A stretch of DNA of 64,000 nt from a virus, in the IMG/VR virus record IMGVR_UViG_3300026290_000001; one strand, given 5' to 3'. Within the stretch, counting starts at the first letter, position 1. Each line of letters opens with the position of its first letter. Below, piece by piece: positions 5,374-37,545 of the stretch. The position numbers were made by a program, and so were the translations under genes. The notes under the pieces are model-generated. The model did no database searches and was not told where the DNA came from. It worked only from the letters and a program-made list of their open reading frames with translations.

Positions 5374-5391
5374 AGGAGGGATTATTACATA

Positions 5392-7347: not shown

Positions 7348-7349
7348 AT

Positions 7350-8431: not shown

Positions 8432-8496
8432 ATATAGCAGAGGTTATCCCTCTGCTATCCCTTCAATAAACAATTTAATTCAAAGGAGGCAATTAT

Positions 8497-8691: not shown

Positions 8692-8742
8692 TTATGTATT
8701 AAAATAGTAATATAAAAATACATTAATTATTGGGAGGTATTT

Positions 8743-8982: not shown

Positions 8983-9274
8983 AACTATAAAAATTGGCTG
9001 GAGAATTTATGAAGTAAAATTTATTGATGAAGAAATTAGAGATAAGAATGGTGATTTACTAGATGGGCAAATCGACTTCAATAATCATATTATCTATATC
9101 GATAATGGCATGATATATGAAGATGAAAGAATAGTTACATTTTTACATGAAGTTGTGCATGGAATATTCCATAGTTACTGCAATTCAAAGTGGAATGATG
9201 ATGAAGATTTAGTGGAGTGTGTTGCAGAAGGGATATTCCAATTGATTAAAGATAATCCTAATTTATTTAAATGA
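8969..9274 (+). CDS. small HExxH metallopeptidase-like protein
   Basis: HEVVHGIFH motif. Confidence 0.3.
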   Translation: MKIPKTIKIGWRIYEVKFIDEEIRDKNGDLLDGQIDFNNHIIYIDNGMIYEDERIVTFLHEVVHGIFHSYCNSKWNDDEDLVECVAEGIFQLIKDNPNLFK

Positions 9275-9290
9275 GAAAGGAAATATAAAT

Positions 9291-9554
9291 ATGGATAATA
9301 TAATTAAACAAATACGTAAAATTATTGGAAATAATGATTCTAGTCATATACAAGTTAATATTGGTATTAATGAGATATGGTTTAATATCTATGAATCGGA
9401 AGTATTGATAACTATTGATACAAAAAAGAAAGAAATTTACGTTGACTGTGAATTATCAAACCATCATTTAACTAGCAGTATGTTATACGAATTATATATG
9501 ATTACTGAATTATTAGAAACTAAATGGGATGTGTTTGAGGAATTATTAAAATAG
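9291..9554 (+). CDS. hypothetical protein
   Basis: ORF co-oriented in module. Confidence 0.25.
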   Translation: MDNIIKQIRKIIGNNDSSHIQVNIGINEIWFNIYESEVLITIDTKKKEIYVDCELSNHHLTSSMLYELYMITELLETKWDVFEELLK

Positions 9555-9568
9555 AAAGGAAAGGTAAA

Positions 9569-10240
9569 TTGATTAAAGTAGAAAATATAGAAGTGTTCAA
9601 TTTTCAAGGGGCTTTAAGGGGCATGCGGAATCCTTTAGAATCTTGGGATAAATCAGATAGTTATTGGAATGACACTACTATTGAAAGTGTCAAAGATTTC
9701 ATCATTGGTGAAAAAGATATGACACTTGCTTTAAAACTTATTAAAGCAGGAAATGAACATGCAAAATTCATGCGTCAAATTTTTGTCTCAATGGATATTA
9801 CTGCGCCTTTATATTGGTGGAAGGAAGCAGACACATATAAAATTTCTACAGTAGCAAACAGTACATCCACTATGCACAAAATGGGCAGCAGACCATTAAT
9901 TTATGAAGATTTTTCTTGGGATAAATTCTTTGAAACAAATTTAGGTAATATTACTGATGAATATATCTACAACTCAATTGAAAAATACCGACAGGATACT
10001 TTATCTCACTTAAACGAATTGATAGAAATATGGCAGGAACGAAGAGATAAGAAAATATGGCTGGCAATAATTCAAAACTTACCTTCTTCGTTTAATCAAA
10101 TGAGAACTTGGACTGGTAATTATCAAGTATTAAGAAATATGTATTTTCAGAGACGTAATCACAAGTTAAAGGAGTGGAAAGATTTTTGTAAGGTGATTGA
10201 GGAGTTACCTTATAGTGAATTGATTATAGTGGAAAAATAA
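9569..10240 (+). CDS. ThyX-like (flavin-dependent thymidylate synthase fold) protein lacking the canonical RHR motif
   Basis: Segment ITAPLYWWKEADTYKISTVANSTSTM loosely parallels the ThyX region around the RHRxxSxxxxSxR motif but without the Arg/His residues; placed among nucleotide-metabolism genes. Confidence 0.3.
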   Translation: MIKVENIEVFNFQGALRGMRNPLESWDKSDSYWNDTTIESVKDFIIGEKDMTLALKLIKAGNEHAKFMRQIFVSMDITAPLYWWKEADTYKISTVANSTSTMHKMGSRPLIYEDFSWDKFFETNLGNITDEYIYNSIEKYRQDTLSHLNELIEIWQERRDKKIWLAIIQNLPSSFNQMRTWTGNYQVLRNMYFQRRNHKLKEWKDFCKVIEELPYSELIIVEK

Positions 10241-12236: not shown

Positions 12237-12953
12237 CTACTTCTTCAATTCTTTAAGTAAATATTCAACGGCATTATCAATTAAAACAGCACATTCTATT
12301 CGTGTAATACTACTATTAGGATCTAAAATCCCATCGCCTTTACCAGAAAGTATTTTCTTCTCATATAATCTATCTGCACTTTTTGCTCCCCAATGATCTT
12401 TAGGCAAGTCTTTAAAATACTTTGACATTTCTTCAATCACCTTACCTTTCAACAATTCCTTCTGAACTTCATTTTTAAATTTATCCCATGTCCAACCTAA
12501 ATGACCTGCTCTTATTAAACGTGGACAATTTTTTCCATTCCAATCCCAATGCTGTCTTAATGATTCTACATTTTTATTTTTAGATTTTAATAATTCTGCC
12601 ACAAGTAAAACTGCATTTTCTAATGTTTTTTGGTAATTCCCACTTTCACATATTTCAATTCCTATACTACGTCTATTACCAGCACCACTTCCTCCATCTC
12701 CTGCGTGCCAAGCATTTTCAAATAAAGGAATACATTCAATTGCTTGTTTTTCATCAATGGCAATATGATAACCTGTAGAAGATGTATTTGAAGGATTGGT
12801 TAAATAATCTCTTTCATTTCTTGCAGTAGATTTTGAATTCCCTGTGTTGTGAATAGTAATATATTCCCAATCCATTTTATATTTTGGACGTTTATTAGAA
12901 TTCATAGGAATGTGATCTATTACATAAGGAAAAGGTAAATTAAATTTACTCAT
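12237..12953 (-). CDS. endolysin, N-acetylmuramoyl-L-alanine amidase (amidase_2/PGRP-like)
   Basis: HNTGNS...GYHIAID...AWHAG...SIGIEICE...CPRL motifs typical of amidase_2 domain; adjacent to holin. Confidence 0.75.
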   Translation of the reverse strand: MSKFNLPFPYVIDHIPMNSNKRPKYKMDWEYITIHNTGNSKSTARNERDYLTNPSNTSSTGYHIAIDEKQAIECIPLFENAWHAGDGGSGAGNRRSIGIEICESGNYQKTLENAVLLVAELLKSKNKNVESLRQHWDWNGKNCPRLIRAGHLGWTWDKFKNEVQKELLKGKVIEEMSKYFKDLPKDHWGAKSADRLYEKKILSGKGDGILDPNSSITRIECAVLIDNAVEYLLKELKK

Positions 12954-14456: not shown

Positions 14457-15461
14457 TTATTGATAGAAATATTGAGTATAACTTTGTTGCTTGTGTTCAA
14501 ACGTTTGTTTTGCGTAAATGCCCGTAGTTTGAATATCATCATGACCTAAAAGTTCTTGTAATACCGACATTGGACAACCGTTATTTAGCATCAAGGTTGC
14601 GAAAGTATGTCTGAGCATATGGGGATGAGTTCTCTTGTCAAGCCCTGCACGTTTACCTATTGCTGCTATTTCTCGTTGAATACCTCGATTGCTTAATCTT
14701 CTATATTCCTGCCGTTCTGTTACAAATAATGCTTCACAGTCATCCTTACGACTTTCAAGATATTTTTTAAGGTAAATTGCAGCTCTAGCAGAATAGAATA
14801 CAATTCGCTCTTTGTTTCCTTTGCCTAATACCTTAATCGTCCGATTTGATTGTCCTATATCATCTTTATTTAGTGCCGATATTTCAGATAATCGACAACC
14901 TGTTGAATACATAATTTCAGTTAATGCTTTTTCTCGCAAAGTGAAACAACTTTCACGGAATAGTTCCAATTCTTCAATTGTTAATGCCTTTGCCATTGCT
15001 TTTCCCACTTTATAAGGTTTAATTCTAATCATCGGATTTTCTTCAATAATCTGTTCCTCACAAAGCCATTCAAAGAAACTGCGAAGTACTGAGCGAATTG
15101 TCTCAACAGTACTTTTAGCATTTACTGTTGGGTCGCTTTCCCGATCATCCAGATAGTTAATTATGTCCTGCTTGGTTATTTCATTTACTGGTTTTTCTTC
15201 GGTTCTATCGGTAAATATTTTAAGATGAAGTCGATAATTATCAATAGTTATTGGACTTAATCCTTGCCGTTTTTTATCCTTCAAAAACAGTTTTATGTTT
15301 TTCCGCAAATTATAATATTCTGGATCGCTGTTTTGTTTTATAACTCTGTATTCATCAAGAATGGAGGCTAATTGATTTTTAGCCTCCATCTTATTCATGC
15401 CTTTTTCTATGATTCCATCTACAATTTTAGCATATAGCTCATAATTGAGATTAGGGTGCAT
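14457..15461 (-). CDS. XerC/XerD-like tyrosine site-specific recombinase
   Basis: RLSE (box I Arg), GKGNKER, HMLRHTFAT (H-x-x-R), LGHDDIQTTGIYA (catalytic Tyr). Confidence 0.8.
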   Translation of the reverse strand: MHPNLNYELYAKIVDGIIEKGMNKMEAKNQLASILDEYRVIKQNSDPEYYNLRKNIKLFLKDKKRQGLSPITIDNYRLHLKIFTDRTEEKPVNEITKQDIINYLDDRESDPTVNAKSTVETIRSVLRSFFEWLCEEQIIEENPMIRIKPYKVGKAMAKALTIEELELFRESCFTLREKALTEIMYSTGCRLSEISALNKDDIGQSNRTIKVLGKGNKERIVFYSARAAIYLKKYLESRKDDCEALFVTERQEYRRLSNRGIQREIAAIGKRAGLDKRTHPHMLRHTFATLMLNNGCPMSVLQELLGHDDIQTTGIYAKQTFEHKQQSYTQYFYQ

Positions 15462-17187: not shown

Positions 17188-18030
17188 TTACCTCACCACC
17201 TTTAGCTGAATTGGCAAACTAACTTCAGGTTTATCCATCGCATATAATGTTATAGAATTATTAGCAGTTGTTACACGATAAATTTTACCCCACTCATTTA
17301 CTCGTTCTTTATCTGTAGCAAATGTGCCACTCATTACTACGTCAACTATAGGATTGTCATTTGACGATATTCCAGTTACCGTTTGCGTTTTCGTATATGG
17401 GGCTTCTGTACCTGTCCAAGTAGTATCAAGTGTTGTCGTAAGCGTAGCGTGATATACGTGTCCTAATTTACTTATTGTCGCACCATCTGCCAGATGGTTA
17501 GCAAACTTTTTCCCAACCCCACTAACCAAAGGTCTTTTATCGACAATTATATTTACAGTTTTATCCGCATTTGTACTAATAGTACCAATTAATAGACTTC
17601 CATCTGTAATTGTTCCATCTATACTACTAGCAAAATTTCCATCATTTTTAAGATATATAGTATAGGTTATACTGGCCGATACTGGATTAATAGTAAAAGT
17701 TGTATCAGATGTTTTAGTTATAGTATTTATTGTATTTCCACTAAATGTTTCACCAGTACCACTAGCAATAACTATACTTAATGTATCTGTACCACTCGTA
17801 TAAAATGCAGATTTTATTCTAAATGGACTATCCAATTCTAATGAATTTAATAAAAATCTCGCATCTTTCCATGTTGCTCCTAAATCTCTAGGATCAGTAC
17901 CACCTAAAGTAACATTTGCATCATCAGCAACATGGATAATATCTAAACCACTATATTTATTTCTAATTTCTGCTACTTGCTCATCTGTATGTATAGCAAA
18001 TACTTTGCTATTTTTAATTACACAAATCAT
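17188..18030 (-). CDS. tail fibre protein
   Basis: Shares a roughly 110-aa domain (about 75% identical by eye) with the adjacent tailspike; Ser/Thr/Gly-rich. Confidence 0.45.
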   Translation of the reverse strand: MICVIKNSKVFAIHTDEQVAEIRNKYSGLDIIHVADDANVTLGGTDPRDLGATWKDARFLLNSLELDSPFRIKSAFYTSGTDTLSIVIASGTGETFSGNTINTITKTSDTTFTINPVSASITYTIYLKNDGNFASSIDGTITDGSLLIGTISTNADKTVNIIVDKRPLVSGVGKKFANHLADGATISKLGHVYHATLTTTLDTTWTGTEAPYTKTQTVTGISSNDNPIVDVVMSGTFATDKERVNEWGKIYRVTTANNSITLYAMDKPEVSLPIQLKVVR

Positions 18031-18049: not shown

Positions 18050-19813
18050 TTACACTATTATCCATGAACCTTTATTTCCCTCAGAATTAGGTTCAGGAGA
18101 GAAAATAGGACTGCCACTATAATTAGAACAACGTACATATCCATTGTTATATGCAAATATATCAATTAAACCTGCATCACCAACATTAGAATTTGAAGCA
18201 AATAAAGAACCTTCTTCACAACAATCTATATTGTATTCCACATTGTTTTTTGCAATAATTCCCGAACTAAATCCTTTTCCACCATTATTAACTGTTAATC
18301 CTGATTTATTTCCACAAACACATATATTTTCTGCCATCATACCCCCACCAGTAGAATCATAAGCACCTTTTTCAGAATTACCATTTGCTATACAATTATT
18401 TATATAAATCCCTGCGAAATTGGAACATTCATAACCATTTTCATTATTGGAAGATGCTGTATATGGTGCAGTAATACCTGCTCTGTTAGTTACAAAAAAA
18501 CCAGATTTAAAACCAGATACTCCAACATTTGTACCACAAGTTATGCTTGCGCCTGTTGTTGATAATATTCCATAATTAGTACTAGCATTAGAACCAATAA
18601 TTGCAACATTATTTAATAATCCTAATTCAGAACGGTCAGCAACAATACCATTACAATTTGTAAATTTTAACGTTGTAGTTAAAACAACAAAATCTCCACC
18701 CGTTAATGCAACAGCAGGGAATGGAGTACCTTGAAAAGTATTTTTAACCGTTACTACGTTTCCATTTATATTTATAATTTCATACATTCCACGTAAAACT
18801 TCATGATTACCTGTGCCTGTAGTATTTTTTATAATAGCATATTGTCCTACTTGCATACCTACTGCACTAGCAACTGTTATAGGTACAGACCAATTTCCAG
18901 CAGTATCAGAAACACTACCTACGTTTGAAACGGTTGTGGCAATAGGAGTAGCACCAATTATTCTTATATTAGAACCATTAACATGATTTATTTTAAGTTG
19001 AGAAGTATGTTCATACATTTCTGTTAATAAAGAAATAGTTACAGTAGTTGAACTAGTTATACTAGCAGTTTTTATACTATCTAAAGCATTTGGTATTGTA
19101 GTAAAATCACATCCAGTAGAGCCAACAGTTATAGTTTTATTGGCATCTATAATAGTATCTGTTAAATGTTTAATAAATTCACTACCTACAGCACTAACTA
19201 AAGGTCTTTTATCAGTAATTGTATTTATAGATTTATCTGCATTGGTACTAATTGTTCCTATTAAAATACTTCCATTTGGAATACTACCATTTGTACTTTT
19301 ATCAAAATTACCATCATTCTTTAAATAAATATTATAGGTCACGCTAGCACTTACTGGATTAATATTAAAAGTAGTATCAGATGTTTTTGTAATAGTGTTT
19401 AAAGTAGTACTATTAAAACTTTCACCTGAACCCGAAGTAATTATTATTGATAAAGTATCTGTTACTGAATTATATTCAGCAGATTTTATCTGAAACGGAT
19501 ACCCATATACATCTTCTACATTACTTTTTAAACTATCATGATCATATGCTGTAAATAATCTTCCTATTATCGTTCCATTACTCCATGTCTGTGCTGTCCC
19601 TTGAAATCCCCTAGTTACACCAACCAAACTACTACCACTTTTATCTGTATATAAAATAGTTTCTGCATTATTACCAGTTCCTATAGTAGCAAGATTAGGT
19701 GCATTGGGAAAAACTGAAATATCAGTTACGGGGATGGTAGTTGCAATACTATTTATATCAGAAGAAAGTGTTGTAAGAGGGGAGTTAATTTTAGCATTAT
19801 ACATTGTTTCCAT
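18050..19813 (-). CDS. tailspike with right-handed beta-helix (pectate-lyase-like) domain, putative depolymerase
   Basis: Repetitive N/G/S-rich coils (NCNGIV...NNVAIIG...GTNVGVSG...NNCIANGN...) typical of parallel beta-helix; N-terminal domain shared with neighbour. Confidence 0.5.
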   Translation of the reverse strand: METMYNAKINSPLTTLSSDINSIATTIPVTDISVFPNAPNLATIGTGNNAETILYTDKSGSSLVGVTRGFQGTAQTWSNGTIIGRLFTAYDHDSLKSNVEDVYGYPFQIKSAEYNSVTDTLSIIITSGSGESFNSTTLNTITKTSDTTFNINPVSASVTYNIYLKNDGNFDKSTNGSIPNGSILIGTISTNADKSINTITDKRPLVSAVGSEFIKHLTDTIIDANKTITVGSTGCDFTTIPNALDSIKTASITSSTTVTISLLTEMYEHTSQLKINHVNGSNIRIIGATPIATTVSNVGSVSDTAGNWSVPITVASAVGMQVGQYAIIKNTTGTGNHEVLRGMYEIININGNVVTVKNTFQGTPFPAVALTGGDFVVLTTTLKFTNCNGIVADRSELGLLNNVAIIGSNASTNYGILSTTGASITCGTNVGVSGFKSGFFVTNRAGITAPYTASSNNENGYECSNFAGIYINNCIANGNSEKGAYDSTGGGMMAENICVCGNKSGLTVNNGGKGFSSGIIAKNNVEYNIDCCEEGSLFASNSNVGDAGLIDIFAYNNGYVRCSNYSGSPIFSPEPNSEGNKGSWIIV

Positions 19814-22286: not shown

Positions 22287-22448
22287 AATTTATCACCTCC
22301 AACCTAATTTTTCAAAAAATAGAAAAATCAAAAATGTTCAAAAATTTATCTTCTGTTTTCTCTTGTTTTCTTCCATTTACTCTGTTTTTCAAGCACAAAA
22401 TTTGAATAAAAGGAATATTTTATTGTTGAGCCAAGAACACTCGTGACT

Positions 22449-23741
22449 TCAGTCATGAGATGAATTGGCTCTGTTCTGTTCATATATAATCCATGATTTT
22501 CTTGCATTAATTCTTTGCATGTTAGATATTTTCGGTGTCTTCATACCTCTGGGTGCATTACTAAAATCTATTTTTTCACCATCTATACCCATAAGAATGG
22601 CATAACCCGTAGACATTCTACCTTTAATAAAATATTCATTACCTATATACCTTACTTTATCAAACTTCCTAAATCCTTCTATTTTACCTGTAGGTATCTT
22701 CTGATGACTTCTTACTCCTTTTGCCTGTTGGTAATCGCCTTTAGGGATACACTTTTTTAATACAGCTTTTTCAGTTTTAAAGCTTACATCAATTAACCCT
22801 ATATCTTCAATATTATTTAAACAGGCAATAGCTACAGCATCGTAGTAATGCTCTTTTGGTAATCCCATTAGCTGTCTATGTTCTTTGGTAATAAATCCAA
22901 AGGTTTCTTTTGCATTTGGTAGCTGTCTTAATAATTGTTGTCTTATACTATTCATCTGTGTTGTGTGTTTTAATTGTCCTTTAATTTTACCATTCTTCTT
23001 TAATTTAATTCCTCCTTTGTGCAAACTATTATGACAAGTTTTACAAAGTGTAATTAAATTTTCTGCATCATCTGAGCCACCATTTTTTCTAAAAACTATA
23101 TGATGTACCTCTAATCTGCTGTCTTTACTTTTTCCTTTGCAATACTGGCAAATATATTTATCTCTACTTAATACATAAGCTTTAGTATTAGCAAATCCAT
23201 AATTAGTTCCTTTTTGATAAAGCCATTTATTACTTAATACTGCTGGATTTTTTAAAGCATGTGGGTCAAATGTTGCTGTTTCTATTATTATATTTGTAAT
23301 GGGCATTATTGATTTTGCAAAATCAATTTCTTTTAAGTGTGAATTAATTTTACTTGTCATTGTAGGAGAAAATCTATCTTTTTTAATGCTGTTTTTCCTA
23401 TTATTAAATCTAGGTTCCCTATATCTAGTTTTCCTATTCCTTCTAGTTCTCCTATATTTAGCTCTTTTGTCCATTTTGTCAGATATATCATTTCTAATTT
23501 CTACTTCTGATATATAATACACTTCATTTTCGTCATTTGCTACTGCACTTCCTATTTTACTACTACCAGTATCAATTCCTAAAGTTAAATCTTGTGTATA
23601 GTCTGTAGCATGATATAGTAATTTAATTGTAAATGGAGTTCTTCTTATGCATTTTGCTTTACCATCTTTTAACAATAATCTTGCTATTGCTGGTTTACAA
23701 GGCATTAAAGGACTCCCATCTTCATTAATTACATAAACCAT
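22449..23741 (-). CDS. iscB: IscB-type RNA-guided nuclease (OMEGA system effector; PLMP + split RuvC + HNH)
   Basis: N-terminal PLMP motif (GSPLMPCKPAIARLLLKDGKA), RuvC-I LGIDTGSSKIG, Arg-rich bridge RRTRRNRKTRYREPR, RuvC-II IIIETATFD, HNH CQYCKGK...EVHHIVFRKNGGSDDAENLITLCKTCH, RuvC-III HYYDAVAIA. Confidence 0.75.
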   Translation of the reverse strand: MVYVINEDGSPLMPCKPAIARLLLKDGKAKCIRRTPFTIKLLYHATDYTQDLTLGIDTGSSKIGSAVANDENEVYYISEVEIRNDISDKMDKRAKYRRTRRNRKTRYREPRFNNRKNSIKKDRFSPTMTSKINSHLKEIDFAKSIMPITNIIIETATFDPHALKNPAVLSNKWLYQKGTNYGFANTKAYVLSRDKYICQYCKGKSKDSRLEVHHIVFRKNGGSDDAENLITLCKTCHNSLHKGGIKLKKNGKIKGQLKHTTQMNSIRQQLLRQLPNAKETFGFITKEHRQLMGLPKEHYYDAVAIACLNNIEDIGLIDVSFKTEKAVLKKCIPKGDYQQAKGVRSHQKIPTGKIEGFRKFDKVRYIGNEYFIKGRMSTGYAILMGIDGEKIDFSNAPRGMKTPKISNMQRINARKSWIIYEQNRANSSHD

Positions 23742-24030
23742 AAAATCAAATCCTTTCGGATAAATACTCTGCTTAAAAGCAGGTTATGCGTATCTATATA
23801 CTATTACCATATATAGAATTCGTCCTCATCTCGACAATGATAAAATAGCTTATATGTATATCACACCGAGCCTTACCCTCCAACTCTACTTAGTGATATA
23901 CGATAGAGCAATGGTCTGATGCGTCAACCAAAGGTATCATAACTATTCTATCGTAGTATAAATTTCTCTATACTAAGTCTGGTGAACTTAGACTTTAGAA
24001 GCCTCCGACTTTAGTCGGGGGTAGTTCACT
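23742..24030 (-). ncRNA. candidate omega-RNA scaffold upstream of iscB
   Basis: About 285 nt with no ORF, GC-enriched relative to surroundings, several stem-loops on the - strand (cccccgact-aaa-gtcggagg; ctaagt-tcaccag-acttag; ctgct-ttta-agcag) directly 5' of iscB. Confidence 0.45.
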
Positions 24031-25606: not shown

Positions 25607-25735
25607 AAAATCACCTAAATTTCTTTATAATTGAATAAATTATTTAAAAAAGAATAATAATAATTAATAAGCAAAATAGTTAAATAGTATTGTAAAAAAT
25701 TAGATAATATGATAGTATAAATATATATTATTAAA

Positions 25736-26335
25736 ATGAAAGGATGTATAATAATGAAAATTAAAAACTTATCTTATCTGTTTATTGGTTTGCTAGTTGG
25801 GTGTTTATTTCCCATTCAATCTTTATTTGCCGAACAACCTATTACATTAATTATCAATGGTAAAACAATTACTAATGCTTCACCACAAATAGTTTCAGAT
25901 AGAACGTATGTACCTTTGAGGGTAATATCCGAAGAATTAGGTGCAACAGTTGAATGGGACGGAGTAAATAGGGTAGTTAGGGTTAATAGTGGGGATGGAC
26001 AAAAAATTGAAAAGATTAATCAAAATCAAACTCAAAACAATAATGATAATAGTAATGTGGAGAGCAACCCTAGAGATAATATCAATTATATTAGTAGTGA
26101 TGATATGGAAAAATATTACGAAAGAGATACAAATAAAGGTTTTGTAAAAAATCGTTGGGTAGATGGTAAATATTTTATTGACTATGATAGAAAAATTACA
26201 CGTTTTGAAGATTATGAATATTATTATGATAGAGAAAGAGATATATTTTATTGGGCAGATTATAAGGCAATTTTAATCTTTGGAGAAACAATAAAAGATT
26301 ATCCTAAATATAAATTTAACCAAATACAGCAGTAG
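25736..26335 (+). CDS. secreted lipoprotein with copper-amine-oxidase-N-terminal-like domain (moron)
   Basis: Signal peptide with lipobox LLVGC; domain ITLIINGKTITNASPQIVSDRTYVPLRVISEELGATVEWDGVNRVVRV; opposite strand to the surrounding late genes. Confidence 0.5.
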   Translation: MKGCIIMKIKNLSYLFIGLLVGCLFPIQSLFAEQPITLIINGKTITNASPQIVSDRTYVPLRVISEELGATVEWDGVNRVVRVNSGDGQKIEKINQNQTQNNNDNSNVESNPRDNINYISSDDMEKYYERDTNKGFVKNRWVDGKYFIDYDRKITRFEDYEYYYDRERDIFYWADYKAILIFGETIKDYPKYKFNQIQQ

Positions 26336-29189
26336 AAGAAATAGCATCTCCTTCAACTAAAACTCTTTTTGCTCCATACCAACTACTACCAACATAAACT
26401 TCATCACCTAATAAAACTTGATTAGCACTTATTTGTAAATGTGGATAAGTAGAACCACCTGCTGAAATAATAACATTATGACCAGAAGTAGTGTACATTA
26501 AAATTTCTTTATTACTACTATTTTTTCCACCTATTTGCAAAGAATTAAATGCAGTAAAATCTCCAGCAGTTATTTGATTAGCATATATTTTACCAGTAAT
26601 AACATAATCTTTTCCTAATTGTGTAGTTAAGGCAGTATTAGTAACATAGTTTGCTAAATCACCAGAATATACTAAATCTGTTGGTTTATCTATCACTTTG
26701 CCCCATGCTATATAAGCATTCGGACCCATTTGAATATTGTCACCAACAATTAACTCATTAACTTTTAGTTTATTTGCACCAACACTACCATTGGACAAAT
26801 AATTACCATTGATTTTATTTAAAGAATCCAATACATTAGTACCTGCAATTTTTAAACTCGAACAATCTATATTACCTTGAATATCTGCTGATGTTGCCAC
26901 TAAGTGACCTGAAAGGGAAACCCTGAAGGGTGCATAATTATAGTTACTACTACCTAAATATATTCCATTCGTGTCGGCTTTAAATATGGCATTACCCGAT
27001 CCTATCTGCATATGTCCTTTTAATATTAAATTACCATCAATGTCAGCATATAATTTTTTGTTCCATTGAGAACCTTCATATTTTTCAATAGTGAATCCAT
27101 CTGTTGCGTTAGATATGGAACGTACTTTATTGTCTGAACGGGTAATTGTTAGTCCATCTGTTATATCTATTTTTACACCATTATAGAGTTTATTTTCTAA
27201 GAGTACTCCTTCTGCTAATTCTGAAACTGGTAATCCACCATCCGTTATTTGTAGGGAAAGACCTGAAATTTTTACTCCCGTTTCATTGACGGTGAAGAAT
27301 TTTTTACCTTCGTTGTTTGATGCGTCTATTATGAGGTTTTGACCAATTAATAAAGTACCTAAAATTCTTTCTGCTACAATCCGATCTGGCAAAATCGCAG
27401 TATGAAATGTATTACCTCCATCTTGGGTAAGAGTAATTACACCATGCATCATACGAATAAATTTATCAGAATCGTTCGGATCTATAATACTGATGCCTCT
27501 TCTATCAGTAATTACCGTCTCATTACCACAAGCAATTACTGCTTGTTTAGTAGCATCCCATGCATTATTTATAATTTTCTGTACTTCATTATTAGCATTT
27601 TCACCCAATGACCATTTATATTTTTCCATATCAACAGTAGTAGATGTGCTCACTGCTTGATTTATTCTCTTTAAAAACAAATCATAATCACGATTAATAT
27701 TTTCAATATTACTAATTACAAGATTGACACTATTTTCTTCAAAATCAAAATCCATTTCAATAATTTTTGCCATAATGCTAATATCAAAAGTTTCATGGTC
27801 AATTCTAACCAAATCACCTAAAATCAATTTACCTTTATCTAATTGACAATCTTCATCTAAATATTGATCAATATTTATCGAATCTATCTCTATTAATATT
27901 TGTGGTGTATTTATTTTTACAAACTGTTCTTTACCCCAAGATAATAATTCTTTAGCATCAAAGATGTATTGATTTTCAACAGTTTTTACAACTATATAAT
28001 CAGTAAGTTCAAATAATTCAGATTGAGTAAAATTACTTTCCATACGCAATGTGTCACCAAGAGAAATTATATTAGATTGTACAGAATTTATTTGTGATTG
28101 TTTATTACTAATTTCAGTGTTTTTATTATTTATTTCATTTTGTTTGGCAGATTGTTGTGCTAATAAATCATAAGCACTTTGACCCTTAGATTGTGCCAAA
28201 TCTATATTGTCTTGAATTATTATTAATTCAGATTGTAGTGTAATTAATTGACTATTTAAAATTATTAGTTCTGCTTCATATGTTTCTAATTGAGATAAAT
28301 AACCTTGATATATACCATCATTATCTTGTAATTTTTTATTATAAGCCAATAAAGCATGACATAATTCATTGGACATATAATGACTACTTTGAATTACATT
28401 GCCTTGCTCATCTTCTGTATATGGATAAAGAAAATATCCAAAGTTATCTAAATAGTCAGTACCAGTTATATTGTATTCATTTATACTTAATCCCGATTTG
28501 CCATAAATTTTTAAACGAGTGCAAAAATCTGAATCATCCAAAGATTGATTTAGTGATTTCAAATAGATACCATAATTAAAATTTAAACCAGTGTAGTTTC
28601 CGATTTGGTCTAATTTATAAAAACTTATCTTTTTATTTTCAGTATCCCATTTAATAATTGCACTAAATGTTTCTGAAACTGTAAATATTGCATCTAGTAC
28701 CGTAGCAGAAGTAATTTCTAACATGCGAAATTTAGTGTCGAACTCTGAATTCACGTACCCCAAAGACCATGTAGTTTCCTTTAACAAATCGGTCATTATT
28801 TGTGATAATGTTTTGGATTCAACTTTATATCCTCTAATTAAATTATCTTTTAATTTAAAGGGGAGAGAAAAACATTCCACTTGAAACGAATCTATATCTT
28901 CACCCATATTTTGAATTGGTTTTTGTATAATAAACCATTCAATTTTATTATTATATTCAAATTTTATTAGGTATTTATAACGAATCATATTAAGATGTTT
29001 GTTATAAACTAATTCGTTCTCTATTTCAATATATAAAGGAAGATCAAACGATAATTCTGAAATATTACCAAGTTTACAGTTATATTGTATATTAAATGCC
29101 TGATTAGATAAATCTGCAATAATATTTCTATCAGGTTTTGTAAGATATAGTTTTGGTTTTTGTAGTAAGTCTATTATAAATATCACCAC
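26316..29189 (-). CDS. tail-associated lysin / baseplate hub (Tal-like) protein
   Basis: 957-aa protein downstream of tape measure and Dit-like gene; central coiled-coil. Confidence 0.4.
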   Translation of the reverse strand: MVIFIIDLLQKPKLYLTKPDRNIIADLSNQAFNIQYNCKLGNISELSFDLPLYIEIENELVYNKHLNMIRYKYLIKFEYNNKIEWFIIQKPIQNMGEDIDSFQVECFSLPFKLKDNLIRGYKVESKTLSQIMTDLLKETTWSLGYVNSEFDTKFRMLEITSATVLDAIFTVSETFSAIIKWDTENKKISFYKLDQIGNYTGLNFNYGIYLKSLNQSLDDSDFCTRLKIYGKSGLSINEYNITGTDYLDNFGYFLYPYTEDEQGNVIQSSHYMSNELCHALLAYNKKLQDNDGIYQGYLSQLETYEAELIILNSQLITLQSELIIIQDNIDLAQSKGQSAYDLLAQQSAKQNEINNKNTEISNKQSQINSVQSNIISLGDTLRMESNFTQSELFELTDYIVVKTVENQYIFDAKELLSWGKEQFVKINTPQILIEIDSINIDQYLDEDCQLDKGKLILGDLVRIDHETFDISIMAKIIEMDFDFEENSVNLVISNIENINRDYDLFLKRINQAVSTSTTVDMEKYKWSLGENANNEVQKIINNAWDATKQAVIACGNETVITDRRGISIIDPNDSDKFIRMMHGVITLTQDGGNTFHTAILPDRIVAERILGTLLIGQNLIIDASNNEGKKFFTVNETGVKISGLSLQITDGGLPVSELAEGVLLENKLYNGVKIDITDGLTITRSDNKVRSISNATDGFTIEKYEGSQWNKKLYADIDGNLILKGHMQIGSGNAIFKADTNGIYLGSSNYNYAPFRVSLSGHLVATSADIQGNIDCSSLKIAGTNVLDSLNKINGNYLSNGSVGANKLKVNELIVGDNIQMGPNAYIAWGKVIDKPTDLVYSGDLANYVTNTALTTQLGKDYVITGKIYANQITAGDFTAFNSLQIGGKNSSNKEILMYTTSGHNVIISAGGSTYPHLQISANQVLLGDEVYVGSSWYGAKRVLVEGDAISSTAVFG

Positions 29190-29208: not shown

Positions 29209-29982
29209 CTAATAAAATCTGAATTCATATTTCATGTCCAAAAAACACTTGCCATCAACCTTTAGTCTATTTTTACCATAAGGCAAACTCATATAATAAT
29301 TATTTATAAGTTTGTCATATCTATAAATAGGTGGAGGTGTGCTTTCTAACGAACTTTCTATATTTCTTCTCTTACAATCGATTTGTACAATTTCATTATC
29401 TTCTAATTCTGAAAATCCAAATTCTTTACCGTTAGATAAATTTAAAATAGATACTTTACCTTTTTCTAGTTTTTTAATTGTTATTATAGGTAAAACATCC
29501 ACATCTCCTAAATTATTAAATACAAAATGATTAGTACTTTCTTTGCTAAAATCATAAGATTCTAAATAGATATGCGAATGTGCATAAGAACTCTTACATC
29601 TAAATTGACAAGTTATATAACCTTGATTTATACCATTATGAGATATTTGTGGATCAGAAATTAAAATACAATAATAAATTTTATCAGGATTTTCCGAAAA
29701 ACGCATTTTAGCATAATATGGTTTTCTTAACCATCGTTTAACCCTTTGTAAAGATTCTTCCGTCCATCCCTTTTTAAAAGCAAAAACTAAATCCAGTATT
29801 AAAGGTTTTGGTTTAACTTCTTGAAAATAAGGTTCATTTCTACCACGTATTTCAGTTTCAATTATTTCTACTTCTGCTACAAAAGGTTCTTCTGTCATTC
29901 CAGAAGAAAGATTACAATTTATAATATCGTAATCATATGAATATTCATTATCAAATTCAAAATACGCAGAATCTTTTATCAT
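29209..29982 (-). CDS. distal tail protein (Dit-like)
   Basis: Position immediately downstream of the tape measure gene. Confidence 0.35.
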   Translation of the reverse strand: MIKDSAYFEFDNEYSYDYDIINCNLSSGMTEEPFVAEVEIIETEIRGRNEPYFQEVKPKPLILDLVFAFKKGWTEESLQRVKRWLRKPYYAKMRFSENPDKIYYCILISDPQISHNGINQGYITCQFRCKSSYAHSHIYLESYDFSKESTNHFVFNNLGDVDVLPIITIKKLEKGKVSILNLSNGKEFGFSELEDNEIVQIDCKRRNIESSLESTPPPIYRYDKLINNYYMSLPYGKNRLKVDGKCFLDMKYEFRFY

Positions 29983-30030: not shown

Positions 30031-33000
30031 CTATTTACCAAGTTTACTCATTCCATTATTTATCCGTTTAAAGAAACCATCAACACCTTTTTCTGTGTTT
30101 TCTACTTTATCTATATGAACATTCATATTATAAGTTACGTTACCTCCACCAGCAAACTGTAATTGTGGAGTTGCATTGGCAATTAATTTTTGCATATTAG
30201 GAATTAGATATCTTTCAATATTTTTTGGTGGAATTAAAATTTCATTTGTTAGTGCTTTGATTATATGTTCATTGGCACTGGTATTGAAAAATTTATTAAA
30301 TTTATCAACAAAACCAAATGATTTATCTCCGACTATACCACCTTCATGATATATCCTAATTTGTCTTTTCTTTTCATCCCATTCTACTTGATGACCTAAT
30401 GCTTCTGCAACTTCCCTGATAGAAAGATATGTTGTTCCGTCAACATTTTTAGCTGGTTTAAATCTCTTTCCACCAATTATAATTGTCTGGTTTTGTCCAT
30501 AACCTTCCCAATCAGCAGATGCTCCTAAAAGTGATGCAAGAAGTCTAGATTGCATAATTGCTCTATTATTGACAAGTTCAAAAGAACCAGAATCCAATAC
30601 TGCCATAGGTTGTCTACCAGATGTGTTAGAACTAGGATTAGTACTTTCCAAAGAGGGAATAGACATATTCGCACTATTTGCACTTTCTAATAATGCTAAT
30701 GCCTGTTCCATTTTTGTAATTAAATTAGCACTAATACTATTACCAATAAACTCTAAATTGCCATTTACAAAAGTTTTAAATTCTGCAAAAGCTGATTTAA
30801 CTTTATCAATATTACCATTTATAATATCAGAACGAATTTGGGCAAACTTTTGTTCGTCATTAATTAAATCGTCATAGTGTTTTTCGGTTTCTCTTTTAAT
30901 TCTATCCAACCTATCTTTTTCTAAGTTAAGTTTAGTATCTTCTGCTTTTTTCTTTGCATCAATATCTTTTTTATAAGCATCTAATTGGTCTTTAAGATTT
31001 TCTTTACGTAAATCAATTGAATGGTCATGTTGATATTCATTAATTTCATCCTCTTGTTCTGCCAATTGTTTTATTAATTCTGCTTTTTTTGCTTTTGCTT
31101 CAAAAGAATCATCTAATGATAAAACGTCAATATTTTTTTGAGTTTCTAATATTGCTTTTTGTTTCTTTTCCAATTCACGATTATAATCATGCTCATTTTC
31201 TTCTCTATCTAGTGCTTTGATTCGTGCATTGATGTAATCTTCAAATTGTTTTAATTCATCATCAAGATTATCAGTTGCTTGTTTATGACGTTTTTCTTCT
31301 GCTTTCATTTGTTCATCTATGGCATCTAATGCAACTTGTTTTTGTTTTTCATAGATATTTTTATAGATAGAGATGATTTCGTCTGCTATGGATGCTAGTT
31401 GTTGTTTGATAGAGAATTGGAGATTGATATATTCTTGCTTTAGTTGTTTTAAAGTATTTATCAATTCTTGTTTTTGGTCAGCATTGTATCTATCACTTGC
31501 TAATTCCTGTTGAACTAATGCTATTTTATTTCTTAAAATATTAACACTTTCAATATTAATTTGATTTTCTCGTTCTAATAATGCAATATATTCAGCAGAC
31601 CCTTTTTCTAATAAAGACATTTCATTTCTAAGGTTTTCTTTTTCTTGAGTTAAATCAGATAGTTTAATATCTTCAATTGATAAATTAATTTTAAATTCAG
31701 CAAAACTCAAATCTCTTATTTCATCATCTATACCTTGAATTTCTTTTTTAAGACCTTCTGCACTATCTTTGAGTTTTTTAAAATCTTCAATCGCTTTTGC
31801 AATTTTTTCATTCTTTATATCAACTTCAATTGTATCTGTTGAACCAGACATTATTTTGTTAAAGTCAGATTCAGACAACCCTTTTCCAATATAAGACCGT
31901 AGATTCTGTTCTGCTTGTTTTAGACTTGAATCAAAAGTGTTATTTATATCTAAAAGCAGGTTTTGTTTTTTTTGTAATAAAAGTATCATTTGGTCATATA
32001 TTTCTGTTTTTTGTTCAAAAGAAGTTACATCGTCAAGTTGATCTTTAAAAGTTTCTATTTCTCTGTTAATTGCTTCGAGTGCTTCTTTCCAAACTTCAAA
32101 GGTTTTGGTAAAGGATTTGGAGGATTTAGAGGAAGAACCATATCTATCTAAAGAACTAGATACATTAAGATTTTTAAACTTAGATGCCATATCTCTAGTG
32201 GCTTTTTGAAATTCAGCATAATCTTTAAGCATCTGGTTTGTTTTAGAATCAACAGCTAAAGCACTACCGCTTTCAATACGTCTAAAATCACCCATACTCG
32301 AAGGATTTACTAATAGCGTACCTGCATTAAAAGCATCAAAATATTTCGCCCATTCAGAACCTAATTTGCTTATTAATTGCAATTCAATTGCTTCTCTTGC
32401 TTGAGCTAAATTTGCCCATTGAGTTACATTATTGCCATATAATTTTGATAAATGATTAAATAATTCAGCATGGTTATTTTTAACACTGTTATAGAAATTA
32501 ATATCTTGTTCTTTAGTTTTTATAAAGGCATCATAAATTGCATTTTGGTAATCTTCTGTGTCTTTGACAAGTTGTTGTCTTAATTTGGACTCATCTTCAA
32601 GTAGAGGAATATAATCTTGATAATCAGATATTATTTTTTCTATTGAAGATTGAGTAAGACCTTTGTCAGATAATTCATCAAGAAAACCTTTTAGGTCTTT
32701 TATTTTAGATACATTGTCTTTGTAAGTGGTTTGAAAATCGGAGAGAGCTTTTTCATATTGATTTAAAGTATTAATCGCATTTTTTGAATCAATAGTAGAA
32801 GGATATAGTGATGCAAAATTAATAGCAAATTCTTTTAAATCGGGATTACCTTTAGTTAATGTATTAATTAAATTAGTTATTTCCTTAGATGTTTTTGATA
32901 ATCCATCTCTATTTTTCTTAGAATCATCGCCACTATTAATAGCAGAAGTTAATTTATTATATTGTTCAATTAAAGAATCTAAATCAGAATTAGCAACTTT

Positions 33001-36000
33001 AGTAGCAAAATCACTTAATGCTTGTTGTTGAGTTTCTATATCTTCGGGTTGTAAAGCAAGTGATTTAGCAAATTCGGAAACAACTAATTTGGCAGAATCA
33101 GACATTTCCTTACCATTAGATTCTAAAGTTTTAATGGTTTCTTGCGCTTCGTATTCTAAATATTTTTGTTTGTTTTTAGAAAGATTATATATTTCTTCTT
33201 GTTGTCTTTGATATATATCTTTCCAATCTTCTAATTTTCTGAGGTTATACCATTCAGTTCCTTTATTATTATCAATCATTAATTGATATTCTTCTATACG
33301 TTTTTCTGCGGTGTCTCTGAGGTTAATTGCTTTTTTAATTTCTTTATTAGTTTGTTTATCTGATGCTTTAACTTTAAATTCTAATAATTCCTGTTCTTTT
33401 TTTAATTCTTCATCTAAAGCCAAAATTCTTAGTTTAATTACTTCTATAGAATCAGAATAAGCTTCTCCTTCAAGATTAATACCAGTAGCAGATACACCAT
33501 ATTTATCAACAAGTTCTTTTTGAATTTCTAATAATCGTTTCTTTTCTTCGGTAGTTGCGGTAAGATTTTTCTCTTTATCTTTAAGAGTTTCATATTCAGA
33601 AGTTAATTCTTTTAACCCCTCTTTTTGTTGTTTTAAATTTTGTATTTGATTTTGACTTGTTTCTATTTGTTTTTGTTGTTCTTCTCTATGTTTTTTAGTA
33701 GCATTAGTGAGTCCATAAATAGCAACCATTGCAGTTGTTGCAACAACTGCCAATAATCCTAATGGATTTGTTGCCATCGTTGCTTTTAAAAAATTCATTG
33801 CAGCAGTAAGTCCTTGTGTTGTTGTCAATAATGCTAAAAGGGAAATATTGGCAGCATTAGTAGTAGTAATGAATGCGATCATTGCTTTTATACTAGAAGT
33901 AATAGCAGTTCCTTTCCAAATTAAAAAAGCCGTAGTTAAAAGTGCTACAACAACTTCTGCATTTCCAAGAACTTCAACTAAAGTTGTCATAGCAATTACA
34001 AAACCTTTAATTACGTCAGAATTTAATGCTTCTTGCCATTTCCCCATTACTGTGTTTTTGAATTGTGCAGATTTTGCCTCAATTGATTCCATATACTTTT
34101 CGTTTTCAATTAAAGCAGAATTTGTCGAATTTAAGGCAGTAGTTAGAGAGTCCTGCATATCCTTGTAATTAGTCATCATAGCCATTACTATGTTTCCTTG
34201 TCTTTTTCCTGCGACAAGTTCCGACATATTAGCCCTCTGTACGTCTGTAAGTTTTTCCCAAACTAAGGCTAATTCTAACATAATGTCATAGGTGGATTTA
34301 AAGGTATTTTCATCTTTGCGAATTTGAATACCAATATTTTTAAATGATTCTTCAAGTTTAGGAAGATATTCTAAAACATCTTCACCATCTTCGGATACAC
34401 CTCTAAGTCTCATTGAAATTGTTTTGAGGGCTGTTCCTACGGTTGCTGGGTCTTGTACCACTGCGTTAGCAGCAGTTATCAATGCAACTGCTTCTTCCAT
34501 TGTATTGCCAGCAGAATATAATGAAGCAGCAGATCTACGCATAGCTTCACCAATACCTGCACTTGAAATTGCAAAATTATTTCCAACTTCATTATAAATA
34601 TCTACAATTTTCTGTATATTTCTACCTTCTTCATCTACTGCAACACCAAAACCTTTTACTGCTGAAATAATTGCTAGACTAGCTTCTTCTACTCCAATAT
34701 CACCTACATTAGAATATAATAATGCTTGTTTTGCTAATTGAGCAGATTGTTCAAGGGAATAACCCAAACGGGCAAACTCTGTCGTACTATTAATAACTTC
34801 CACACTAGTTTTTGCCAAATTTCGACCTATAGCATTTGCCTCAAGTGAAAATTTATTTAATGTTTCTCTAGTTTCGTCAGTAACTTTATTCAAATTTGTG
34901 AGAGCAGTATCTATGTCGATGATACTTTGAATACCATTTTTTACTGCTGTTATTGTTTTGATTATTACATCACCGATGAGCAACCAACTAGCGAATTTCT
35001 TGCCCGCTTCAAGTAAACTTTGTCCAAAAAGTCCAGTATATTTATTAGCATCTTGAATTTCTTTCTTATAAATACTTGTGGTAGTAGAAATTTCTCTAAG
35101 TTTAGAATTGGCTTCTGCCATATTCTTACTGAAATTTTTATTAGTTGGATCAAAACCACGTATTTGAGATTCAAGAGTATTTAAAGCACTTAAATTATCA
35201 CCAACAATAAACTTTCCATCTACACCTCTCATGCCCCTGATTCTATTTAATAAATCTTGTTGAGCAAGAGATTGTTTATGTATTTCACTTGTTAACTTTT
35301 GCTGTTGAATAATATCTTTATCAATATTTTTTGCTTTTATTGTACCAACATTCCGTAATGTTTGTTCTCTAATTTTTTCAAGTTGAATTAATTTTTCAGC
35401 TTCTATTCCTTCTATTTTGGTTTTTTCACCAATGTCAATTTTTCTTCTAATAATATTATTATATTGACCTTGATGATAGGTTATTTGTTTAGTTAATTCT
35501 TTTGCCTGTTCTGTATCTTTATTTCCTAAACTATGATAATCTTGTCTTAATTTATTTAATTGTGTTAAATGCTGTTTGGCTTCATTAAAATTTTTATTTT
35601 GTGTATTTTTAATAGTTTCTAAATTAGTTTTTTCAAGATTATCATAATAATCTGCCATTTTAACCAGTTCATCTGGTTTCTTTGTCATATCACCTACAGT
35701 TTCTTTAACTCTCTGTGACCAATATTTGGACTGTTCTTTATTTAATTTTTCTAACTCTGTACGTTGTTTTTTATAATTAATAGTAGTTTCTGTTACTTTT
35801 TTATATACTTCGTCTGTTCCTGCTTTTAAATGTTCAATTTGTTTTACACTCTCACCATTTGCTTTTGTCCACTCTTTAGTTCTTTCAGTAATTTTTGCTT
35901 CAGCATTTTCAATTTGTACATATTTTTCTTTATACTTGTCTAAACCCTTACTATCAACATCAATTTTTATTTTAGGATTAACTCGTTGTTCAATATCTTT

Positions 36001-36075
36001 TTTTACTTTATTTAGTTCTGATTCTGATGCTCTATCTAATAACGTTTTTATTCGGATTACAATATCATCTGCCAC
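30031..36075 (-). CDS. tail tape measure protein
   Basis: 2014 aa, extensive coiled-coil, central hydrophobic block, position between tail genes and baseplate; C-terminus carries a copper-amine-oxidase-N-terminal-like segment (YLSIREVAEALGHQVEWDEKKRQIRI). Confidence 0.8.
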   Translation of the reverse strand: MADDIVIRIKTLLDRASESELNKVKKDIEQRVNPKIKIDVDSKGLDKYKEKYVQIENAEAKITERTKEWTKANGESVKQIEHLKAGTDEVYKKVTETTINYKKQRTELEKLNKEQSKYWSQRVKETVGDMTKKPDELVKMADYYDNLEKTNLETIKNTQNKNFNEAKQHLTQLNKLRQDYHSLGNKDTEQAKELTKQITYHQGQYNNIIRRKIDIGEKTKIEGIEAEKLIQLEKIREQTLRNVGTIKAKNIDKDIIQQQKLTSEIHKQSLAQQDLLNRIRGMRGVDGKFIVGDNLSALNTLESQIRGFDPTNKNFSKNMAEANSKLREISTTTSIYKKEIQDANKYTGLFGQSLLEAGKKFASWLLIGDVIIKTITAVKNGIQSIIDIDTALTNLNKVTDETRETLNKFSLEANAIGRNLAKTSVEVINSTTEFARLGYSLEQSAQLAKQALLYSNVGDIGVEEASLAIISAVKGFGVAVDEEGRNIQKIVDIYNEVGNNFAISSAGIGEAMRRSAASLYSAGNTMEEAVALITAANAVVQDPATVGTALKTISMRLRGVSEDGEDVLEYLPKLEESFKNIGIQIRKDENTFKSTYDIMLELALVWEKLTDVQRANMSELVAGKRQGNIVMAMMTNYKDMQDSLTTALNSTNSALIENEKYMESIEAKSAQFKNTVMGKWQEALNSDVIKGFVIAMTTLVEVLGNAEVVVALLTTAFLIWKGTAITSSIKAMIAFITTTNAANISLLALLTTTQGLTAAMNFLKATMATNPLGLLAVVATTAMVAIYGLTNATKKHREEQQKQIETSQNQIQNLKQQKEGLKELTSEYETLKDKEKNLTATTEEKKRLLEIQKELVDKYGVSATGINLEGEAYSDSIEVIKLRILALDEELKKEQELLEFKVKASDKQTNKEIKKAINLRDTAEKRIEEYQLMIDNNKGTEWYNLRKLEDWKDIYQRQQEEIYNLSKNKQKYLEYEAQETIKTLESNGKEMSDSAKLVVSEFAKSLALQPEDIETQQQALSDFATKVANSDLDSLIEQYNKLTSAINSGDDSKKNRDGLSKTSKEITNLINTLTKGNPDLKEFAINFASLYPSTIDSKNAINTLNQYEKALSDFQTTYKDNVSKIKDLKGFLDELSDKGLTQSSIEKIISDYQDYIPLLEDESKLRQQLVKDTEDYQNAIYDAFIKTKEQDINFYNSVKNNHAELFNHLSKLYGNNVTQWANLAQAREAIELQLISKLGSEWAKYFDAFNAGTLLVNPSSMGDFRRIESGSALAVDSKTNQMLKDYAEFQKATRDMASKFKNLNVSSSLDRYGSSSKSSKSFTKTFEVWKEALEAINREIETFKDQLDDVTSFEQKTEIYDQMILLLQKKQNLLLDINNTFDSSLKQAEQNLRSYIGKGLSESDFNKIMSGSTDTIEVDIKNEKIAKAIEDFKKLKDSAEGLKKEIQGIDDEIRDLSFAEFKINLSIEDIKLSDLTQEKENLRNEMSLLEKGSAEYIALLERENQINIESVNILRNKIALVQQELASDRYNADQKQELINTLKQLKQEYINLQFSIKQQLASIADEIISIYKNIYEKQKQVALDAIDEQMKAEEKRHKQATDNLDDELKQFEDYINARIKALDREENEHDYNRELEKKQKAILETQKNIDVLSLDDSFEAKAKKAELIKQLAEQEDEINEYQHDHSIDLRKENLKDQLDAYKKDIDAKKKAEDTKLNLEKDRLDRIKRETEKHYDDLINDEQKFAQIRSDIINGNIDKVKSAFAEFKTFVNGNLEFIGNSISANLITKMEQALALLESANSANMSIPSLESTNPSSNTSGRQPMAVLDSGSFELVNNRAIMQSRLLASLLGASADWEGYGQNQTIIIGGKRFKPAKNVDGTTYLSIREVAEALGHQVEWDEKKRQIRIYHEGGIVGDKSFGFVDKFNKFFNTSANEHIIKALTNEILIPPKNIERYLIPNMQKLIANATPQLQFAGGGNVTYNMNVHIDKVENTEKGVDGFFKRINNGMSKLGK

Positions 36076-36507: not shown

Positions 36508-37545
36508 TTACAAATCACTTAAAGATTTATTTTCTACTTGTTTAATCCCATCTTCATCAAAATACTTACCTAATTCCTCATCTATCTCAGTGTCATTATA
36601 TAATGACACCATATTCGTACTCTCCCAGCCAACTACATCTTTAATTACATCTGCTGGAATATTTGCTTGGCAAAGTGCGGTTGTAAAATAATGTCTATTT
36701 GAATGCCAATACCAATCTATACCTAAAATATTAGAAAAAGTTATTGCCCAAGAATTTAATAAAGATATAGTGCCTGGTTTCCATACACTATTTCTTTTAT
36801 TCCAAAATAACTCTTCCCCTTCAATGCCTAATTCTTCACGTTGCTTCATCCATAAATCAAAATAAGGTTTAAATTTAGAAACCAAGATATACCTATAAAT
36901 CATTTTACCCTTAGAACTTCTACCCTTTGTTTTTATCTTTTCAGGAGTTTTATATAAAGCACCGTATTTAATATTTTCTTCTGTAAAATGACTTACTTTA
37001 AACCTTAATAATTCTGCCTTTCTTGATCCACTACTTACTGCCAATGCAACTGCACATGCTTGTTGATATTTGCCTTTTTCAACTAAATAATTAAGCAATT
37101 CGTCAACTTGTTCATCTGCAAGGACAGTTTTATCCCTAACATTTACTTTTACTGGTGCAGGGATTTTATTAACTATATTGCGAAAATTAGGGTGAATGTC
37201 ATCTAGCATTGCCTCTATATAATTAGACATACTACTAATTGCTGACTTCAATCTTCTTACTCTATTAGGACTAAGATTTTGTGTATTCACAAGCCAATTC
37301 TGATATTTTAAAATATCACGTTTAGTAAAATCTATAAAAAATTTATTATCATTATATTGTAAATTCCATACCCAACAAATTTCAATATCATTTTCATAAC
37401 CTTTTATAGTGGCATGAGACATATCTTTCCCTCTGCAATAATCTAAAAATTCATTAAGTAAATCTTTATTTTCTTTTGAAACTCGTTTCCACAATTCAGG
37501 AGTTACAATTGTATGTTGTTCGGTTTTCCTTGCGATTATAATCAC
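36508..37545 (-). CDS. tyrosine recombinase / phage integrase family protein
   Basis: SGSRKAELLRFK (box I Arg), WHSNRHYFTT (H-x-x-R), GWESTNMVSLYND (Tyr). Confidence 0.7.
   Translation of the reverse strand: MIIIARKTEQHTIVTPELWKRVSKENKDLLNEFLDYCRGKDMSHATIKGYENDIEICWVWNLQYNDNKFFIDFTKRDILKYQNWLVNTQNLSPNRVRRLKSAISSMSNYIEAMLDDIHPNFRNIVNKIPAPVKVNVRDKTVLADEQVDELLNYLVEKGKYQQACAVALAVSSGSRKAELLRFKVSHFTEENIKYGALYKTPEKIKTKGRSSKGKMIYRYILVSKFKPYFDLWMKQREELGIEGEELFWNKRNSVWKPGTISLLNSWAITFSNILGIDWYWHSNRHYFTTALCQANIPADVIKDVVGWESTNMVSLYNDTEIDEELGKYFDEDGIKQVENKSLSDL

Follow-up and report, generated by a model that had tools for sequence, protein, structure and literature searches.

An exported phage protein with a conserved PF07833 head and an exchangeable tail, encoded convergently with the tail-tip gene

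Facing the tail-tip (Tal-like) gene of this phage, on the opposite strand, is a gene whose predicted exported product is built of two modules: a constant head, consisting of a signal peptide and one Cu_amine_oxidN1 (PF07833) half-repeat, and a C-terminal tail that takes several unrelated forms among relatives. The DNA that varies does not stop at the end of the gene but continues past the point where the two genes meet and takes in the last part of Tal, so that the tail and the end of Tal appear usually to be inherited together. Both the head/tail modularity and the variable segment in common with Tal are new, and neither appeared in the initial annotation of this DNA. We tentatively read the gene as encoding an envelope protein that excludes phages with matching tail tips, and we weigh this reading against three others.

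Results

A lone plus-strand gene in the late region

The open reading frame on which the initial annotation was based (25736..26335, plus strand) is present in the ORF list of the window (i.e., the whole 64,000-nt stretch of viral DNA that was analysed). A second in-frame ATG occurs at 25754, and a Shine-Dalgarno-like element, aaaGGAtg, can be read from the sequence at 25739..25746, its GGA (25742-25744) lying 8-9 nt 5' of this second ATG; the AAAGGA core is retained in every aligned upstream type. Public gene calls likewise start at 25754 (P0001, 193 aa, 100% identical, n = 17 contigs), which is probably the true start, giving a coding sequence of 193 aa at 25754..26335 with an alternative in-frame ATG at 25736.

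That this is the only plus-strand gene amid late genes of the minus strand holds when the ORFs are compared: from 11.8 to 64 kb, it is the sole supported plus-strand ORF of at least 40 aa that does not lie mostly under a minus-strand ORF. The AT-rich region noted upstream of it is also real, in that the spacer at 25607..25735 has a GC content of 10.9%, the lowest among the gaps of this block, in a window whose overall GC content is 28.75%. This spacer is identical in two related contigs (L024 and L026), and the distant copy in a third, L015, is conserved from about 25697. A TATAAA at about 25718-25723 within the spacer is the likely promoter of the gene; a consensus scan gave promoter matches not above chance, in DNA so AT-rich that such a scan says little, and a terminator scan of the same very AT-rich DNA found none for the gene. 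Base composition within the gene is 35.5% GC in the conserved head (25775-25994) and 24.6% GC in the variable tail (25995-26335).

At its 3' end the gene meets the Tal-like gene (26316..29189, minus strand; Pfam YOMG_N and Prophage_tail), which is adjoined by a Dit-like gene (29209..29982). The two genes are convergent and, as the initial annotation had it, overlap at their 3' ends, the overlap being 20 nt (26316-26335). The same convergent, Tal-adjacent arrangement is found in L009, L011, L023, L024, L026, L027, L028 and L029.

Export and the lipobox

The first 26 residues (25754..25831, plus strand) read as a signal peptide, with MKIK at the N-terminus, a hydrophobic core and a putative SLFA/EQP cleavage site; that the product is an exported protein is well supported by these signals. 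The initial annotation went further and considered it a lipoprotein. Applying the PROSITE lipobox pattern (PS51257) by hand, we find that MKIKNLSYLFIGLLVGC has a Cys at position 17 (codon 25802-25804), within the range of 15-35 that the pattern allows, after a positively charged N-terminus with Lys residues in the first 7 positions. Export and the fit of LLVGC to the pattern therefore stand, but lipidation cannot be a conserved requirement of the family, because the lipobox residue of 19 relatives is Cys in 11, Ser in 7 and Ile in 1, their signal peptides being otherwise near-identical.

It is accordingly the individual protein, and not the family, for which a membrane-tethered form has to be considered, with Cys17 lipidated and the protein acting at the outer face of the membrane. 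We regard this as unlikely. The match of LLVGC to the lipobox, the placement of the Cys and the Lys residues, and the retention of the Cys by 11 of the 19 relatives all speak for it; set against them are not only the eight relatives with Ser or Ile but also the conservation around SLFA/EQP, where Ala26 at position -1 is kept in at least 90% of the family and Pro at -6 is conserved, both as expected for signal peptidase I, although a Leu occupies -3. Moreover, the residues that follow the Cys (LFPIQSLF) are hydrophobic, and a hydrophobic stretch in this place is unusual at the N-terminus of a mature lipoprotein.

A domain in common with the tape measure

A single Cu_amine_oxidN1 half-repeat makes up the rest of the head (aa 28-79; 25835..25990, plus strand). 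The initial annotation had proposed that this domain recurs in the tape measure protein (2014 aa, PhageMin_Tail; 30031..36075, minus strand), and this is upheld: against PF07833, whose gathering cut-off is 24.2 bits, the plus-strand ORF scores 54.4 bits (E 1.4e-14) and the tape measure 39.8 bits when its C-terminal piece is searched and 31.5 bits when the whole protein is. The C-terminal location given for the tape measure motif is also correct, but its position and extent are not: the motif, TTYLSIREVAEALGHQVEWDEKKRQIRI, is at 30352-30435 and not at 30.1-30.3 kb, and it belongs to two tandem half-repeats (aa ~1826-1911; 30343..30600, minus strand; identified by Pfam, BLASTP and AF2) rather than one. 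For the C-terminal part of the tape measure, AF2 gives a model that is confident only across these two half-repeats (pLDDT 73-88), and the same two-half-repeat layout is found in P0023, a tape measure fragment of 34% identity. No lytic domain was detected in the tape measure. The plus-strand ORF, in contrast, has one half-repeat and not the complete two-repeat domain of E. coli amine oxidase.

The head aligns with both tape measure repeats in BLASTP searches, at 40% identity with the second (47 aa, E 3e-7) and 25% with the first (51 aa, E 3e-5). Bacterial matches to PF07833 are closer to it, at 56-64% identity, than is the tape measure copy, at 40%; and the tape measure scores lower with an HMM built from the head family (31.6 bits) than with the general Pfam model (39.8 bits). 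In a six-frame search of the window with the family HMM, only the plus-strand gene and the tape measure match, with no third copy. A tblastn search of 50,697 phage records returned no match to either the plus-strand ORF or the tape measure C-terminus. Because the head is nearer to bacterial domains than to the tape measure copy, the shared PF07833 signifies family membership only: on these comparisons the two are family-level relatives without a specific tie between the genes, and on the same grounds we reject the idea that the tape measure domain was recently duplicated into the plus-strand gene.

PF07833 is frequent in secreted wall hydrolases and wall-associated proteins of Firmicutes (PMC4137172). 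Paenibacillus cells, however, were not labelled by a probe bearing PF07833 (bioRxiv 10.64898/2026.09.23.753664), and a wall-binding role of the head is at most conjectural.

A constant head joined to unrelated tails

All homologues in the family have the signal peptide and the domain in common, and their C-terminal halves are mutually unrelated. Between the two modules lies an Asn/Gln-rich, low-complexity linker (25991..26071, plus strand), at which similarity ends and which thus marks a recombination breakpoint at ~25980-26025. In L006, L009 and L011, the DNA of the head (25775-25994) matches at 93-95% identity within unrelated flanks; L006, which matches 25775-25985 at 94.8% DNA identity, shares no other DNA similarity with the window. 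By the evidence of these alignments, the head block has spread horizontally between phages. Among relatives at the Tal locus, heads are 89-96% identical and Tal cores 70-96%, and the tails and Tal ends between them are unrelated. The left ends of similarity are sharply placed, at 25993-25995 in four contigs, 25980 in L023 and 26025 in L026. Each of several tail types is found with both head alleles (P0001/P0002, P0003/P0017 and P0011/L015), a pattern in which head alleles and tail types have evidently been shuffled in both directions.

The tail in the window (type A; 26072..26332, plus strand) contains 21% aromatic residues and is an orphan fold with no family match. An exhaustive phmmer search of 1.84 billion representative proteins yielded one true relative, P0024, which is 44% identical, has the same architecture and carries Ser in place of the lipobox Cys; the other close relatives of this tail are P0002 and P0006. 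Searches of all the variable tails with Pfam, NCBIfam and PADLOC identified nothing beyond PF07833, and no match in the PDB accounts for any tail. For the whole product, the only names returned were PF07833 and one unannotated PHROG, with no match to the known defence or exclusion families in PADLOC, NCBIfam and Pfam. AF2 gave no usable model for this product (pLDDT 41.9).

Several other identities can be set aside. Resemblances of the tail to a choline-binding repeat (E 0.21) and to a WW domain (E 0.69) do not reach any threshold; its one match among the other ORFs of the window, to 36508..37545, covers 40 residues at 12 bits and is taken as compositional. A cis-element acting on the late transcript is rejected as the reason for the conserved head DNA, given that some copies of the gene point the same way as the structural genes and others the opposite way, and a role as tail-fibre chaperone is dismissed in view of the export signal.

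The tail usually travels with the end of Tal

In the Tal-adjacent copies, the variable DNA extends from the head/linker junction across the convergent gene ends to the last ~100 aa of Tal, where the right-hand breakpoints are placed at 26546-26796. Comparison of Tal ends places the variable C-terminal end at 26319..26700 (minus strand), i.e., the last ~100-130 aa of the protein. All variants of this end (26319-26333 in the window, and L009, L011, L023, L024 and L026-L029) finish with AVFG before the stop.

When the tails of two contigs are related, their Tal ends tend to be related as well, and three pairings of this kind link phages that are distant from each other. The window and L027 form one such concordant pair, with tails 39% and Tal ends 43% identical, even though the partner of the gene in L027 is a protein of 284 aa and Tal in the window has 957 aa; the 20-nt overlap is the same in both. 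L009 and L023 are also concordant (tails 43%, Tal ends 55%), as are L011 and L029/L030 (tails 48%, Tal ends 58-62%). L015 is of the same type as the latter group: its tail matches, and a frameshifted remnant of the Tal end lies beside the gene. The exception is L026/L028, in which related tails (34% identity over 145 aa) are found with different Tal ends. In addition, two copies, those for P0002 (tail type A) and P0008 (tail type D), lie at a portal/YomX locus, where the gene is found in either orientation and has no Tal end next to it. Taken together, tail and Tal end seem to be inherited usually, but not obligatorily, as one cassette, and physical adjacency alone could give rise to the pairing.

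The phage and its relatives

The nearest isolates are large Bacillales siphophages (Sundance, KKP_3916 and the SPbeta-like phages), with at most 35% identity in Tal, and there is no opposite-strand gene after Tal in any of these. Because the gene is missing from this position in Sundance and KKP_3916, and because relatives carry it at either the Tal locus or the portal/YomX locus and in both orientations, it behaves as a phage moron, and the initial annotation is borne out in calling it one.

Two long contigs carry the same 20.6-kb stretch, one of 135.3 kb at 79-100 kb and one of 138.1 kb at 3-24 kb, from which we infer that these are differently permuted assemblies of a genome of ~135 kb. A tyrosine integrase is encoded at 14457..15461, so the phage could be temperate. 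The endolysin close by (12237-12953) combines Amidase_2 with a single SLH domain, and it is this SLH domain, not PF07833, that forms the wall-binding module of the phage. Genes for an anaerobic ribonucleotide reductase, NrdD, and its activase (5593-7802, plus strand, in the early region) imply an anaerobic host. Taken together, the integrase, the Amidase_2 and SLH endolysin and the anaerobic ribonucleotide reductase genes suggest that the phage is capable of a temperate life and infects an anaerobic, low-GC Firmicute with an SLH-binding wall.

A 1.6-kb segment of the tail module (22424-24030) that contains an HNH endonuclease gene (22449..23741; RRXRR and HNH) is missing from L009 and from L011, where 22423 joins 24031, and looks like a homing-endonuclease insertion. 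A repeat of ~300 nt (17520-17817 and 19192-19489, 76% identity), situated in the neighbouring tail genes 17188..18030 and 18050..19813, suggests a domain common to two fibre-like proteins.

Two of the related contigs have unusual surroundings. L015 (positions 1-1150 of JAAYCQ010000219.1, a Syntrophomonadaceae MAG contig) holds an island of ~650 nt with 27-34% GC, comprising only the exported-protein gene and the frameshifted Tal-end remnant, between flanks of 45-65% GC; an Rfam search of its very GC-rich stretches (1-200 and 900-1100) gave no match. Either a genuine insertion or a chimeric assembly may account for this island. In L006, the region 4300-10164 encodes YomX, a 115-aa gene product, the exported protein, the portal and a truncated terminase, and ends at an IS66-family element, beyond which are bacterial molybdopterin oxidoreductase genes of higher GC; the phage segment looks like a decayed prophage.

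Discussion

The features described above suggest to us a moron located at the cell envelope, with a constant head and an exchangeable tail, that would serve in exclusion of phages whose tail tips match. Among the readings considered here it has the most support, and exclusion is in our view the likeliest activity, but we put it forward tentatively, as a possibility to be taken seriously without our being persuaded of it. Sec export would place the two-module protein at the envelope, presumably in the wall or at the membrane. There, the head (signal peptide and one half-repeat) may either dimerise the protein or dock it to the envelope, and the tail, held beyond the Asn/Gln-rich linker, would act at the cell surface. 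Its object might be the surface target of the distal domain of Tal or that domain itself, and phages with a matching tail tip would thereby be kept from infecting the cell or from adsorbing to it wastefully, in the manner of the superinfection exclusion exerted by Llp and Cor. Superinfection exclusion had been raised for this gene in the initial annotation; such a role is plausible, and the variable segment that the gene has in common with the C-terminus of Tal lends it indirect support.

A more ambitious version of the same idea is that, in the lineage of ~135-kb SPbeta-like phages to which this one belongs, with anaerobic Firmicutes as hosts, host range and self-exclusion are swapped as one two-gene cassette, in which the distal domain of Tal is matched by a domain of the exported protein that masks its receptor or neutralises the tail tip, the PF07833 head serving both as anchor or dimeriser and as a recombination arm. 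This is a speculation that we think improbable as it stands; if it were true, phages of Gram-positive hosts would have in this cassette an equivalent of the pb5/Llp pairing, assembled from unrelated parts.

The chief competitor of the exclusion reading dispenses with any tie to the tail tip. The protein could be a generic product of lysogenic conversion or surface remodelling whose gene happens to lie in a recombination hotspot, with the head and the Tal core as arms and the two 3' ends swapped together by linkage. In its favour are the sharp breakpoints that recur where head and linker join, the one discordant pair and the two copies situated away from Tal, and the abundance of PF07833 among secreted, wall-associated proteins of Firmicutes (PMC4137172) agrees with a function of this general kind. 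Linkage by itself, however, does not readily explain why three pairings of tail and Tal end have held together at identities of about 40-60%, why one of them spans different architectures and keeps an identical 20-nt overlap although Tal has 957 aa in one phage and its counterpart 284 aa in the other, or why another survives in an isolated island from which all but the gene and a Tal-end remnant has gone (L015). We consider this account rather unlikely, though still a serious contender.

It is also conceivable that the target is the tape measure instead of the tail tip: the exported head would compete for an envelope partner of the tape measure, or pair with its half-repeats, and so jam DNA entry as Ltp does. 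PF07833 is indeed present in both proteins and is retained in the tape measure fragment P0023, at only 34% identity; the head has only one half-repeat, and in PaSOD such single repeats form pairs; and Ltp acts on the C-terminal region of the tape measure. Yet bacterial PF07833 domains resemble the head more closely (56-64% identity) than the tape measure copy does (40%), and the tape measure is recognised less well by the head-family HMM (31.6 bits) than by the Pfam model (39.8 bits). Such a mechanism would, in addition, leave both the variability of the tail and its co-travel with the Tal end unexplained, and we judge it quite improbable.

Should the protein prove to be the cognate blocker of the adjacent tail-tip domain, as in the exclusion reading, it would represent a new exclusion family for Gram-positive siphophages. 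There would then be a genomic rule by which receptor-binding ends and their blockers could be recognised in uncultured phages, namely by two convergent genes whose variable ends are shared, and PF07833, a widespread but functionally obscure domain, would gain a role in a phage exported protein and in the tape measure. If the protein is not a blocker, the locus is still a clear case of head/tail shuffling at a recombination hotspot of the tail module.

Comparison with known systems

The genes for Llp, Cor and related exclusion proteins are found immediately next to, or downstream of, the tail-tip gene (PMC9586334). The present gene resembles Llp of T5 and Cor of the T1/phi80 type in that a small exported protein is encoded next to the gene for the tail tip or receptor-binding protein; it lies directly downstream of Tal, and in most cases the distal end of Tal and the variable part of the gene move together. 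It differs from them in its convergent orientation, in its larger, two-module product and in that lipidation is not conserved, and its probable host is a low-GC Firmicute without an outer-membrane receptor. The family searches, in which PF07833 and one unannotated PHROG were the only names returned, pointed to no sequence similarity to Llp or Cor.

Ltp, from the Streptococcus thermophilus phage TP-J34, is likewise a phage-encoded exported protein of a Gram-positive host; it acts at the surface, where it blocks the entry of siphophage DNA by way of the tape measure C-terminus (PMC3952083). Ltp, however, is a true lipoprotein with helix-turn-helix-like repeats that is encoded in the lysogeny module, whereas the protein described here has only a PF07833 half-repeat, a variable C-terminus and a Cys that is not conserved, and is encoded in the tail module.

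A parallel to the modular organisation is CwpV of Clostridioides difficile, in which a constant anchor is joined to one of five variable C-terminal types that bear an exclusion-like antiphage activity (PMC4737114); both proteins combine a constant N-terminal part with several unrelated C-terminal types. CwpV is nonetheless host-encoded, phase-variable and much larger, is anchored by CWB2 repeats and has no homology to the product of the phage gene.

For the head, the best sequence match in the PDB, although a weak one (profile E 0.039 over ~35 residues), is the Cu/Zn superoxide dismutase of Paenibacillus lautus (PaSOD, PDB 8IMD). The single PF07833 repeat of PaSOD homodimerises and thereby partly rebuilds the two-repeat domain of amine oxidase (PMC10432803). 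PaSOD differs in being a bacterial enzyme, and the phage protein may be supposed to dimerise only by analogy with it; the two are alike in Sec export and in placing a single PF07833-type repeat before an unrelated C-terminal domain.
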